Assembly: GCA_043228905.1 (NCBI GenBank)
Contig: JBHGNT010001268.1
Span: 1 to 10,537, forward strand
Direction of reading: 5' to 3'
Length of the DNA stretch: 10,537 nucleotides
Origin: Azolla caroliniana
Taxonomy: Eukaryota > Plantae > Polypodiophyta
Shown: positions 102 through 10,537 of the stretch, piece after piece
How the letters are laid out: each line of letters begins with the position of its first letter
How positions within the stretch are numbered: position 1 is the stretch's first letter
Translations under genes and position numbers: made by a program
The notes under the pieces: model-generated
Databases searched by the model: none
Seen by the model: only the letters and a program-made list of their open reading frames with translations
What the model was told of the DNA's origin: nothing

Positions 102-325
102 TGTCACGGACACACCAAGTGCGGACTAAGACGGAGCACGGATGATGAGGCTACGACGGAGCGATGACATAATGACACAGGAGCATAAAGATAGAGATGA
201 AGATTAAGGAGAGAAGATGGGCGAAACGAGAATACTAGATTGATATGTCCATGATTGGCGTTGAATCCCCTGAAAGGGACCAAGGATGTTACAAGTATTT
301 TATACATGTTCCAAGATTGAATATC

Positions 326-414
326 TCTACAATATACTCGAGAAATATCTCTAGAATATAGTCGTCTAGAATATGCCATACAATATTTCTAGAATATACT
401 AACGACTAGAGTAT
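326..414. repeat. Clustered TCTAGAATAT motifs in the LTR-A U3
   Basis: Exact copies at 350-359, 365-374 and 388-397. Variants TCTACAATAT at 326-335 and ACTAGAGTAT at 405-414. Confidence 0.8.
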
Positions 415-480
415 TATCAATCAATTCTGAAATGTATTATATGCTAGACTATAGAATACTAAACCATTATATACAAATGC

Positions 481-550
481 ATGCTCATATCAAAATGGTT
501 GAGCATGACATCTTCTTGATGTGAGGTTGTAGGTTCAATACTCACCAACT
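481..550 (+). promoter_or_regulatory. Degenerate tRNA-derived segment / Pol III type-2 promoter inside LTR-A
   Basis: A-box-like TATCAAAATGG (488-498, 1 mismatch to TRGYNNARNNG), stem ACATC-ttctt-GATGT (508-522), a GAGGTTGTA variable-loop/T-arm-like stretch, and B-box-like GGTTCAATAC (532-541). A-to-B start spacing is 44 nt, as in tRNAs. Confidence 0.55.
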
Positions 551-558
551 ATGTATTT

Positions 559-663
559 CATGTCACTGTGTCATGACATTATCCTCCCCTTTACGGTTGC
601 TTTTCCGAAATCGTGGTGTAGGGGTGAGCAGGAAGTGGAGCATGTCATTGTGTCATGACATTA
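559..663. repeat. 23-bp direct repeat (559-581 and 641-663): duplicated LTR-A terminus
   Basis: CATGTCACTGTGTCATGACATTA versus CATGTCATTGTGTCATGACATTA, 22/23 identical. Both contain the palindrome TGTCATGACA. Confidence 0.9.
579..592 (-). promoter_or_regulatory. Polypurine tract (PPT) of the LTR-A element
   Basis: Minus-strand AAAGGGGAGGATAA directly abuts the TG that starts the LTR at 578. Confidence 0.75.
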
Positions 664-2536: not shown

Positions 2537-2969
2537 TGTTACCGGCCGGCAAAGGAGTCCAGAGTGTGAAACGGGGAGTTATTTAATTATTAGGAATGGT
2601 TGTAAGTAAGCTATGAGTGTGGACGGACGGACCGGAATCGGTATGCCGTTCTGGATCCGGACCGATCCCGAACAGGTGCGGATGGCACCGTTTTGTACTA
2701 CATACCGGAAACCTATTTAAAGGCCCGGATACAATGTAATGAGCATCGGTTAATTAATAAAGCTTAGTGTTTTTATCTCTCTGTGTTAATTGCCGTTCTG
2801 CATTCATTGTTATATCTTACGTGTGTGATTATTAAGGACGATCTTACTAAGTAGCCTAATTAAGTCAGATTAATCGTTGATTTTAATCCTCTTGCCGTAA
2901 CACCCCTTTGGTGAAGTATCTTCCGTAGACACCCTGTGTTAGGCCATTGTCCGGCCCTAAGAATTAACA
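2537..2969 (+). repeat. 5' LTR of the gypsy element (~433 bp)
   Basis: Starts TGTTA exactly where copia homology stops and ends TAACA (2965-2969; CA at 2970-2971 is an alternative end) just before the PBS. TATTTAAA at 2714-2721 and AATAAA at 2756-2761. The partner LTR is not in the window. Confidence 0.8.
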
Positions 2970-2976
2970 CAGTTTT

Positions 2977-4964: not shown

Positions 4965-5855
4965 AAAGAGCAAAATGTCATAGACTTACAACGGCAAAAG
5001 GAGAACACCGTAGGGCTTGCCGGCGGCAGTCACTCCGAGAACGAGACATGGTAGGCGGTGCAAGAATGCCAGATTACGCTGCCACTAGGAAGACTCCTAC
5101 AGCTCGTGCCAAGATTCACGGAAGGATTGAAGATAGCCATGACGGAAGGAGAATCATCACCGGCACCGGTACTCTTCTCGAATTCGGAGGAGGGACCAAT
5201 GGTGGTGGACACCAGCAGTCCGGTAATTACTGCCATTATAAAAGGGAAAGAACTCCCCGGCACAGTAATAGACGGAGGCTCCGGGGTGAATGTAATAAGC
5301 CTCCGGACGTGTGATGACCTAGGAATCCATGAGTGGGAGCCGTGTCCGTTCTGGTTACGGATGGCCGATACAAGCTCAATGCGGCCAACAGGATTAATAC
5401 GAAAATTAGAAGTCACTGTTGGCGGTCACACATTTCACATCTCGGCAGTAGTGCTACAATTACATGCACAAGGCGCATACCCGCTATTGCTGGGGCGGCC
5501 GTGGTTGAAAACGACACATATCAAGCAGAATTGGAGGAAAAATATAATTACCTTCCGGCGAGGAAAAGCCAAGGTACGGGTACCAACATAGCCAAGGACG
5601 AGCACTGGCAAGGAATGTACACCGTTGTATGCAGAGCGCGTCAACATGCTAGAAGGGTTAGCTGACGAAGAAGAAGCTCAGTATTTGCAGGAAAACCCGA
5701 AGATCGTACCCCTCTTCGAAATTGACATTGCCGAAGCAGTAGCACCATACGTACCGCAACCGGAAGAGACTGAAGCAGAACCGGATAAAGACGCAATCCG
5801 AGAGTTACGGCAAGCGCAGGAAGCGTTGGAACGGGAAATGGCCATTTCACAGCGC
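4965..5855 (+). pseudogene. pol: pol part 1: aspartic protease and linker
   Basis: VIDGGSGVNVIS active-site motif (Asp at 5271-5273), LRMAD and LLLGRPWL. Stops at 5052 and 5589. Rejoins part 2 in frame after removing 5856-6651. Confidence 0.9.
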
Positions 5856-5981
5856 TGTCGTGCCTTTCGGCTCCGGATCGTTGCGTGAGTCGGGTGGGAA
5901 CCGCCGAGGTTTTGGACTAGGAGAAAGAAGAATATGAGATGAGGCTAGTAATGAATAGATTATTAGAAAGAGAGATAGAAA

Positions 5982-6117
5982 TTTCGTGAATCCCACGAGT
6001 GTATTGTATTCGATTAATCAATATTTAGATAAGAATATGTATTTAGATTGAAAGAAAGATATAAGAAACTTGTGAATCCCACAAGTATAGATTATATTAT
6101 TTTCGTGAATCCCACGA
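5982..6117. repeat. Three copies of the quasi-palindrome TYGTG-AATCC-CACRA in LTR-B
   Basis: TTTCGTGAATCCCACGA at 5982-5998 and 6101-6117; TTGTGAATCCCACAA at 6070-6084. Confidence 0.9.
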
Positions 6118-6256
6118 TTATATTAATCGGTTGGTGTTTTCGGAAATATATCCAATTTCCAAATATTTCACACACCTATTACATTGTGCTCCCCATCCTT
6201 ATGTAGTGATGGGAGAGACTAAGCATAGCTACATGCTTTTTTTTTTCTAATATGTT

Positions 6257-6402
6257 CATGCACACTAAATGTGCATGTGATGCTTTCTTAATCCTTGCTT
6301 TTATTTGCTAAATATAGTGCTCATGCACGCTAGATGTGCATGAGTCACTTTTTAGTTGCTTGCGTTTTTCTATAAAATATTCACGCACTCTAAAAATGCA
6401 TG
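6257..6402. repeat. Three copies of a 21-bp CATGCA..TGCATG inverted-repeat motif in LTR-B
   Basis: CATGCACACTAAATGTGCATG at 6257-6277, CATGCACGCTAGATGTGCATG at 6322-6342 and CACGCACTCTAAAAATGCATG at 6382-6402. Confidence 0.85.
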
Positions 6403-6473
6403 ATTTACCTTTTAATAAAGGTAGGCGCAAATAAAGAACTTATAGTTATTAAATCTATTTGTAGAACACTAAA

Positions 6474-6546
6474 GATAAGGTAGCATAATGGTAAAATTGA
6501 GGTTTGGCTATGTGGAGGTATAGGGTTCGAATCTTGCCCTATGCAC
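6474..6546 (+). promoter_or_regulatory. tRNA-derived segment / Pol III type-2 promoter inside LTR-B
   Basis: A box TAGCATAATGG (6481-6491) fits TRGYNNARNNG. A GGAGGT variable-loop-like stretch precedes B box GGTTCGAATC (6524-6533). Spacing is 43 nt. A T5 run lies at 6556-6560. The cloverleaf is degenerate, so this is not a functional tRNA. Confidence 0.7.
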
Positions 6547-6651
6547 GTGATAAATATTTTGATATTCTTATTTTATTTATTTATATGTAATTAAATCGTT
6601 TATATTATTTTTACTTTTTCACGTAGTGTACGAAATACACTACGACAGCGC

Positions 6652-9690: not shown

Positions 9691-10019
9691 CGAGGTAATC
9701 ATGCAAAAGCGAGGTATGAGAGAGAGCGAGGAGCGAAAAGGTATGTAGTGGGCATTTAAGCGCCACCACAGGACATAATGCTATTTTAGTACACGACGTG
9801 CACACACTTGAAAAAGGCGCCAGAATGCACAGAGAAAAACCACTACACGTGGAGACCCTCTACTTTCGCGAACCCAGGAGCACAGAAGCACCAAGGCGCT
9901 GGAAGATCATCAGACGAGAACCTATGCACAGAGAACCCCCGCTTTTTGAACTCTCTCTCTCTCAATCTCACTCTCATCACCATCCAACCTCGCCACCACA
10001 ATCCGACCTCGACACATAC

Positions 10020-10537
10020 ATGGACCCGCAAACGCTGTCGAAAGCCGCCAAGAAATGGCTAAAGCAACACGGGCTCGAGGGCTTCTTGACGATTATGGAG
10101 GTACCGCCACACAAAGAAGTCGACAAGGTTATCAAAGAAATCGACACAAAGGTCATAACGGGGGAGGCGATCCGTGCGTTAACAGGCCTTCCGGAGGGAG
10201 GCATACTCACGATTGACAATCCGACCTCGGAGCAACTCATCAAGTATTTTGGTGAGTACTCCCTAGCCAGCAAGGGCTACCGGACACAGGGCGGCGGAGA
10301 TATGCTGTTCCGCAAGATTGCTCGTGTGCTCCACGAATACGGCCATGTGTACCCTAGACCCCCTGTCATGCCGCAGAACCGGGCAGGGATGATCATCGCC
10401 ACCTATGAAGGGATCAATGTGGATTGGCCGGTATTGATCGCAGACGGTTTGTGTGCGGCGATTGAGATCGTCAGAGGCAAAGACGACAAAGAAGGCCGAG
10501 ACGGACGAAGGATATGGCACGCAGTAACGCTGTCGTG
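10020..10537 (+). CDS. Additional 3' ORF of the gypsy element, unknown function (open at the window end; possibly interrupted at 10531)
   Basis: About 172 stop-free codons from ATG 10020: MDPQTLSKAAKKWLKQHGLEGFL...VITGEAIRALTGLPEGG...YEGINVDWPVLIADGL...RRIWHAVT. A CT-rich leader (9951-9978) precedes it. The track probably omits it because it has no stop in the window. Confidence 0.75.
   Translation, partial: MDPQTLSKAAKKWLKQHGLEGFLTIMEVPPHKEVDKVIKEIDTKVITGEAIRALTGLPEGGILTIDNPTSEQLIKYFGEYSLASKGYRTQGGGDMLFRKIARVLHEYGHVYPRPPVMPQNRAGMIIATYEGINVDWPVLIADGLCAAIEIVRGKDDKEGRDGRRIWHAVTLS

Follow-up and report, generated by a model that had tools for sequence, protein, structure and literature searches.

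The window, by which we mean the whole 10,537-nt stretch of Azolla caroliniana DNA analysed here, is a nest of LTR retrotransposons made up of a Copia fragment, a plus-strand Gypsy element from position 2537 on, and two inserted LTRs. Taken by themselves, the types of element would suggest a non-seed plant as host. One of the two inserted LTRs is a solo LTR and the other, termed LTR-A, is unrelated to it; each harbours a tRNA-like head close to one end, and the head of the solo LTR, together with the motifs that accompany it, is referred to below as the cassette (Table 1).

Table 1. Positions of the two inserted LTRs in the window and of the motifs within and beside them.
Feature	Positions	Strand	Remarks
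LTR-A, unrelated LTR	102..579	-	PPT complement at 580-595
Second tRNA-like head, in LTR-A	481..545	+	Antisense, outer U3; T8 at 488, B box 532-541, TATA at -31, CAA at -7
Left 4-bp TSD, GCGC (NCGN type)	5852..5855	.	Right copy at 6648-6651
Solo LTR, 792 bp, TG...CA	5856..6647	-	Coding Ty3/gypsy family likened to Phygy; sits in pol of another Gypsy element
Probable Pol II TATA zone of the LTR	6190..6210	-	Inward of the cassette by ~270-340 nt, opposite direction; suggested by the sequence and a TATA-like core in relatives
TATA at -33 from tRNA position 1	6441..6444	+	Candidate TFIIIB site
tRNA-like head (positions 1-73)	6474..6545	+	Antisense to the element; linear motifs retained, cloverleaf lost
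A box TAGCATAATGG	6481..6491	+	Full pattern in 8/16 copies; position 10 variable
8-bp hairpin enclosing the B box	6518..6544	+	Distinct from the tRNA T arm; 92% of its cells pair, with changes on both sides in 3 pairs
B box GGTTCGAATC	6524..6533	+	Full pattern in 8/16 copies; C56 missing in 8/16
T4 run	6557..6560	+	Possible Pol III stop, product ~84-87 nt

The solo LTR and its relatives

Contigs from public runs bridge the insertion site and omit 796 nt, that is the 792 nt of the LTR plus 4. Relatives were retrieved with a 20-mer at the LTR end opposite the cassette, an anchor that is blind to the cassette itself, which yielded 61 metagenome loci from organisms other than that of the window, many of them collapsed assemblies. 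At least 600 nt lie behind the anchor in 23 of the 61 loci, eight of these 23 stopping before the position of the cassette and being left uncounted, and the other 38 are too short. One PBS motif adjoins the U5 end at 12 of the 61 loci, with a degenerate version at one more, most of the remaining loci have NCGN-type flanks, and the same motif occurs at loose ends of run X17. Going by the 3' end of tRNA-Trp, this PBS is presumably of the tRNA-Trp type. Past the 6647-type end, related LTRs are followed by either a PPT complement or an NCGN flank. Since relatives have the PBS beside the 5856 end and the PPT beside the 6647 end, the LTR reads along the minus strand, and the cassette is thus antisense to it in the outer U3, which bears out the original prediction of an outward-pointing cassette, antisense to the transcription of a solo LTR.

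The coding capacity of the family is evident from locus L048, where a PBS, an open gag of 712 aa, an open pol of 1241 aa, a PPT and the U3 side of the 3' LTR are found, and Pfam places RT, RNase H and integrase in that order in pol, with neither a chromodomain nor an extra ORF. By TSD, PBS and domain order, the family can be likened, as a matter of signature, to the Phygy-type non-chromovirus Gypsy elements. The accessible part of the Neumann 2019 supplement (PMC6317226) gives a 4-bp NCGN TSD and a tRNA-Trp PBS as the Phygy signature and, again as in the family here, describes a polyprotein that fills the internal part and lacks a chromodomain. Phygy elements measure 7.7-10 kb in that source, compared with a slightly smaller ~7.3 kb here, and, in contrast to the LTR described here, a tRNA-like U3 part goes unmentioned for them in the same accessible part (PMC6317226). 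Scans of viral contigs returned one match in all, with no relatives of pol and no tRNA-Trp gene among the results.

The solo LTR and the elements around it show a number of other peculiarities. A GTGAATCCCAC-core repeat occurs three times at 5975-6124, with its CpGs intact in 41 of 45 cells across copies, far above the other CpGs of the LTR, and is likely, judging from this pattern, to be a constrained cis-element. Between the cassette and the Pol II TATA zone, at 6253-6423, lie three palindromic units, each built on a CATGCA core, and one more palindrome, all well covered in X17, a run from another species; we take the CATGCA cores to be RY-like. At 5858-5919 the contigs of X1, X9 and X12 reach 3-4 times the depth found over U3, which can be ascribed to a U5 end common to more subfamilies. 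Two loci (L031, L043) have a single LTR with the PBS on one side and the PPT on the other, representing either the shared LTR of tandem elements or a collapsed assembly, and in L025 (1-374) two U5-side LTR halves are joined head to head as an inverted repeat. The host Gypsy element carries an extra ORF behind pol (9720-10535) that encodes at least 272 aa and has no Pfam match. At the very end of the window (10527-10537), the first 7 letters of the same LTR end follow an NCGN site, likely marking another insertion of the solo-LTR family, in this extra ORF.

A tRNA-like head in the outer U3

The A and B boxes are arranged as in a tRNA gene, with a T8-to-T54 distance of 45 nt, and the head further retains T at position 33 and a variable-loop remnant, AGGT, at tRNA positions 44-47 (6516-6519). 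The LTR terminus at 6647 is 114 nt away from the end of the B box. Box spacing, remnant loop and a location about 110 nt from the terminus had all been predicted, and all three are confirmed. The strict A+B pattern was not regenerated in any of 3000 dinucleotide shuffles of the LTR and in only 3 of 300 window shuffles; with the loosest pattern the counts rose to 21 of 3000 and 35 of 300, respectively. A tRNA-motif score, which was devised after examples had been seen, produced 16 matches in 149 kb (the window plus the 61 loci), compared with 0.2 on average over 20 shuffles; the sole two matches in the window are the cassette at 6474-6545 and the LTR-A head at 488.

Searches for tRNA genes as such gave a different picture. 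ARAGORN at its default settings reported 0 tRNA genes in the window and, on 60 loci, only one tRNA-Leu, which is unrelated; at relaxed settings the cassette was among 31 noise-level calls, and no Rfam tRNA match at E<=10 was obtained on the window or on three 131-nt pieces. Over 15 distinct copies, 47% of the cloverleaf pair cells were paired overall, with 32% for the anticodon stem and 42% for the acceptor stem. A functional tRNA gene was rejected, given the lost cloverleaf and the lack of a default ARAGORN or Rfam call. When the two cassettes of the window were compared with phages by blastn, no tRNA was among the matches listed (15 were listed for the solo-LTR cassette), and for the L040 cassette tRNA genes made up 3 of the best 15 matches listed, at a non-significant E of 2.

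On the upstream side of the head, a TATA is present at -33 in 12 of the 16 copies (chance 0.13 for a single copy), and the bin that holds it (6441-6450) has the fewest changes among 26 bins from 6381 to 6640. Plant tRNA genes have TATA at -34 to -29 (PMC3082873). A CAA motif near -7 to -3 was found in 0 of 16 copies. Downstream, the predicted terminator stood in part: a T run does lie ~23 nt behind the B box, but it is a T4 and not a T5, the first T5 occurring near 6608, and a run of T4 or longer lies 7-30 nt from the B box in all 16 copies, which is chance level in such T-rich DNA (P 0.68).

Presence, recurrence and conservation

The cassette is present in 14 of the 16 LTRs that are complete end to end (from 15 loci, L028 having two), one of the 14 bearing a deletion through the B box, while in the two LTRs without it (L005 and the second of the pair in L028) some 300 nt of U3 are missing as a whole. 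LTRs of the family measure 650-810 bp, and the cassette occurs in PBS-flanked 5' LTRs, in PPT-flanked 3' LTRs and, beyond the 14 counted, in the 3' LTR of the coding locus L048, as predicted for a cassette common to most copies, whether 5' or 3'. Summed contig depth over 6478-6570 equals that over the rest of U3 in X1, X9 and X12, the runs that contain the window's own LTR sequence; in X1 it amounts to 412-472 thousand over the cassette versus 231-545 thousand elsewhere in U3. For X17, the B-box bins of both LTRs exceed their direct neighbours, but other U3 bins are higher and contig depth is unable to rank the parts, so that this excess carries no weight. A TSD and tail belonging to the cassette itself had been named as the mark of a one-off SINE insertion, and a flanking repeat reached P<0.05 in only 3 of the 16 copies (P 0.15 for the window copy); a direct repeat near 6440-6463 and 6581-6604, considered as an old TSD, is not significant. 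A one-off SINE insertion is excluded, because the cassette occupies 5' and 3' LTRs family-wide at a depth like that of the rest of U3, and in 13 of 16 copies the flanking repeat falls short of significance.

The same layout had been predicted for LTR-A, and this too was upheld: the head lies ~40 nt from the U3 end, and the two LTR types cannot be aligned above shuffle level. Its TATA (-31) and CAA (-7) are at the positions seen in plant tRNAs (P 0.08-0.14 for each alone), there is no T4 before the end of LTR-A, and family contigs cover the head as they do the rest of LTR-A. The one contig of X23, a presumed RNA run, that matched LTR-A does not reach the head and is uninformative on expression. 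The departure from the B box at position 540 is private to the window copy, the canonical letter accounting for 96% of the X1 depth. At 102-663, LTR-A is followed by the PPT complement, ~60 nt of internal end and then a 20-23-nt repeat of the U3 end (641-663); judged from this arrangement, 102-663 is a collapsed element inside the Copia gene, with an imperfect flanking duplication.

A third family (L052 200-620, L062 735-1091) has an antisense tRNA-like head ~30 nt from the U3 end, worn in L052, and adjoins a chromodomain frame (Pfam Chromo, E 2e-4, which is below the curated cut-off). The three families are mutually unalignable above shuffle level, and in all three an antisense head lies no more than ~115 nt from the U3 end. 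No such head was detected in the LTR of the host element (window 2537-2972) or in the L005/L035 family, so that the head is common but not universal among these LTRs. An antisense tRNA-like head in the outer U3 of coding Gypsy LTRs is real, family-wide and recurrent.

Similar stretches were seen at three other places. One lies on the minus strand of L025 (915-977), at the contig end and 8 nt before a possible LTR end; another, on the minus strand of L018 (25-82) and likewise at a contig end, stands behind a GA repeat with no clear LTR context and is perhaps a free SINE; and in L010 (1591-1660) a stretch resembling a tRNA 3' half stops just before a TG start.

Conservation was compared over copies that share 62-97% U3 identity (15 copies, pairwise), and changes were counted on a tree of 16 copies against matched-site expectations. 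The original prediction that the boxes would be more conserved than their flanks failed for the boxes as blocks and held for single tRNA-invariant positions. Mean pairwise identity in the 15 aligned LTRs is 0.78 for the A box and 0.77 for the B box, against 0.78 for the 93 nt upstream, and 26% and 41% of 11-nt windows are conserved as well as the A and B boxes, respectively; the A box took 16 steps on the tree (~14 expected) and the B box 11 (~14 expected), and both full boxes are intact in 3 of the 16 copies. By comparison, the twelve sites taken to be tRNA-invariant underwent 8 changes where 14-16 were expected (P 0.02-0.06). Restricted to the 11 non-CpG sites, the count is 3 against 12-14 (P 0.0002-0.004), the omission of C56 having been chosen post hoc, and no unusual conservation is seen for the 11 fixed promoter letters when G10 and C56 are counted among them (P 0.31-0.45). 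The CpG of the B box is intact in 5 of 15 copies, similar to other CpGs of the outer U3 (75/136, P 0.17), whereas the CpGs in the three repeats of this LTR survive much more often (41/45, P 3e-5); the high-coverage contig L043 is also without C56. Indels are scarce between the boxes, with 2 events in 53 nt, or 3.8 per 100 nt, versus 8-32 in four flanking zones. This pattern would fit a tRNA-type skeleton that is partly constrained and heavily decayed, as might result from selection on a few source elements, although it is no proof of it.

A putative Pol III-factor site at the LTR edge

At a rough probability of 0.45, we favour the reading that a captured tRNA or SINE head has been retained as a putative TFIIIC/Pol III site at the edge of the LTR, a proposal that draws on the sequence and on analogy with known systems. 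A tRNA-derived SINE head would have entered the ancestral U3 and ordinary reverse transcription would have copied it to both LTRs. TFIIIC would bind at the A and B boxes and TFIIIB at the TATA at -33, back to back with the Pol II promoter, and the bound factors could keep the edge of the LTR open, thereby protecting the Pol II promoter of the element itself, with a ~85-nt transcript ending at T4 as a possible by-product. Selection would act only on active source copies, and most inserted copies would decay at the B-box CpG. We count in favour of a retained site the shuffle tests, the presence in 14 of 16 LTRs, the invariant sites, the few indels between the boxes, the TATA at -33 and the recurrence in three families. 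Counted against it are box blocks no better conserved than their flanks, the 3 of 16 copies with both boxes, the CpG decay, the unremarkable set with G10 and C56, the headless LTRs in the same DNA, and the source of the relatives, which come from other organisms and in many cases from collapsed assemblies.

Barriers formed by TFIIIC-bound sites and tDNA are described in yeasts in the accessible text of two papers (PMC11346459, PMC13578239), and these tDNA and extra-TFIIIC barriers resemble the cassette in that B-box DNA is proposed at a chromatin edge. In the same accounts the yeast barriers were demonstrated for host loci, whereas here the case is built from sequence and the host is a plant with methylated repeats. 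CpG methylation excludes TFIIIC, as stated in the available portion of PMC11346459, so a barrier of this kind would be limited in methylated DNA. A broader version of the proposal holds that Phygy-type and chromovirus elements of non-seed plants, as unrelated lineages of autonomous Gypsy elements, each captured an outward-facing tRNA-derived promoter at the U3 edge as a portable putative TFIIIC/Pol III boundary, which would keep the LTR promoter active in heterochromatic nests; this, on the same sequence and analogy, we consider rather unlikely.

The most credible of the alternatives, not far behind the favoured reading, sees the head as a passenger: a tRNA-SINE head would long ago have landed in the outer U3 of ancestral LTRs, where insertions are tolerated, and would since have been copied along, decaying without a present role, antisense copies having survived since they least disturb the element's RNA. 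The decay of the cloverleaf and, in a neutral-looking manner, of the CpG, the box blocks that do not surpass their flanks and the paucity of copies with both boxes are what such a passenger would leave behind; the L018 copy without clear LTR context suggests that free copies exist, and SINE insertion into an LTR has been proposed as the origin of such sequences in the accessible part of Kojima 2024 (PMC10886601). A mere passenger sits less easily with invariant tRNA positions that outlast 30-38% U3 divergence, with a nearly indel-free spacing, and with the side and orientation common to three unrelated families. Nor is there a significant flanking duplication beyond the few copies noted above, and X1 lacks the excess depth over the cassette that a closely related family of free SINEs would be expected to cause.

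It is improbable, in our estimation, that the cassette functions within the element's RNA as a docking site for the primer tRNA, whose D and T loops would pair with the 3' U3 and so aid the start or transfer of the minus strand, as in Ty3 and HIV-1. Docking would directly explain the antisense orientation and the U3 position, and the conserved letters are indeed those of the D and T loops and include A21 and T33, two positions that do not belong to the fixed promoter letters. As reported in the accessible part of PMC5371799, the 3' part of the bipartite PBS of Ty3 lies in U3, and a tRNA-like sequence is described for the U3-R of HIV-1 in the text available to us, so that tRNA-complementary U3 RNA is common to these systems and the cassette. 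The sequences of Ty3 (PMC5371799) and of HIV-1, where it resembles tRNA-Lys3, match the primer tRNA, whereas the cassette differs from the PBS-type tRNA in the anticodon place and at the 3' end: GTC occupies the anticodon place in 9 of 16 copies, CCA in 0 of 16, in spite of a PBS of the tRNA-Trp type, and positions 59-73 differ from the PBS letters. Most Tcn1 chromoviruses, moreover, have no tRNA PBS according to the accessible part of PMC6317226, a point that matters if LTR-A and the L052 family are Tcn1.

We attach a similarly low likelihood to a reading in which the product itself matters, a ~85-nt Pol III RNA antisense to the 3' U3 and folded as a hairpin round the B box that would tune the element or decoy silencing, as do the miRNA units of foamy-virus LTRs. 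The distance from the start to T4 (84-87 nt), the well-paired hairpin with its three doubly changed pairs and a fold z-score of -2.6 for the L040 copy point in this direction; against it, hairpin pairing and covariation were matched by 55-188 of 500 shuffles, the fold z-score of the window copy is -1.1, and T4 is at chance level in the solo-LTR family and missing before the end of LTR-A. The precedent, Pol III miRNA units in foamy-virus LTRs, likewise consists of A/B-box units in the U3 of an autonomous retroelement in the available text of PMC3993851, although the miRNAs there were established experimentally and the unit here is tRNA-shaped, antisense and known from sequence. Finally, a fortuitous resemblance of AT-rich LTR DNA to short box patterns, with which the missing Rfam and default ARAGORN calls and the 15 listed phage matches of the window cassette, tRNA-free as they are, would agree, is largely refuted and very improbable in view of the 0 of 3000 shuffles, the 16 matches versus 0.2 expected and the joint agreement of both boxes, variable loop, T33 and spacing in several families.

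The putative Pol III-factor site has relatives among known LTRs. Helenus/TRIMp3 elements share with the cassette tRNA-like A and B boxes in the LTR, a lost cloverleaf function, a proposed SINE2 capture and solo LTRs with TSDs, as described in the accessible part of PMC10886601. They are, however, non-coding TRIMs, 311-1263 bp long, whose LTRs do not exceed 323 bp (PMC10886601), compared with a 650-810-bp LTR and gag-pol coding here, and in Helenus-1_SMo, LTR-11_DR and their neighbours the tRNA part is sense to the PBS-PPT direction and thought to drive the element's own RNA, whereas the cassette is antisense in the outer U3 and therefore cannot transcribe the element. Membership of Helenus was rejected, as L048 codes for gag and pol and the cassette is antisense to PBS-gag-pol-PPT. 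In the Cassandra and Ajax TRIMs, as treated in the same available text (PMC10886601), a Pol III promoter derived from a small RNA is likewise fixed in the LTRs of a whole lineage, though it is 5S-derived, the elements are non-autonomous and, unlike what is proposed for the cassette, Cassandra transcription proceeds from the 5' LTR through the element. Kojima 2024 (PMC10886601) remarks, in the part accessible to us, that 'not a few' Repbase LTRs contain tRNA-like parts, of which only those of TRIMs were studied, so tRNA-like captures in LTRs are already known in passing. Our search of the open-access literature (Repbase entries lying outside its scope) turned up no account of an antisense tRNA head in the outer U3 of autonomous plant Gypsy LTRs, and tRNA goes unmentioned in the available portion of PMC7466625.

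Even as a passenger, the head would still mark LTR families and supply these genomes with thousands of tRNA-like boxes. If it is functional, retrotransposons that nest in silenced repeats would carry a Pol III-factor boundary of their own, a counter-silencing device borrowed from host tRNA genes and repeatedly found, and tRNA-type insulators, documented only for yeasts in the papers cited above, would gain a testable example from a plant.
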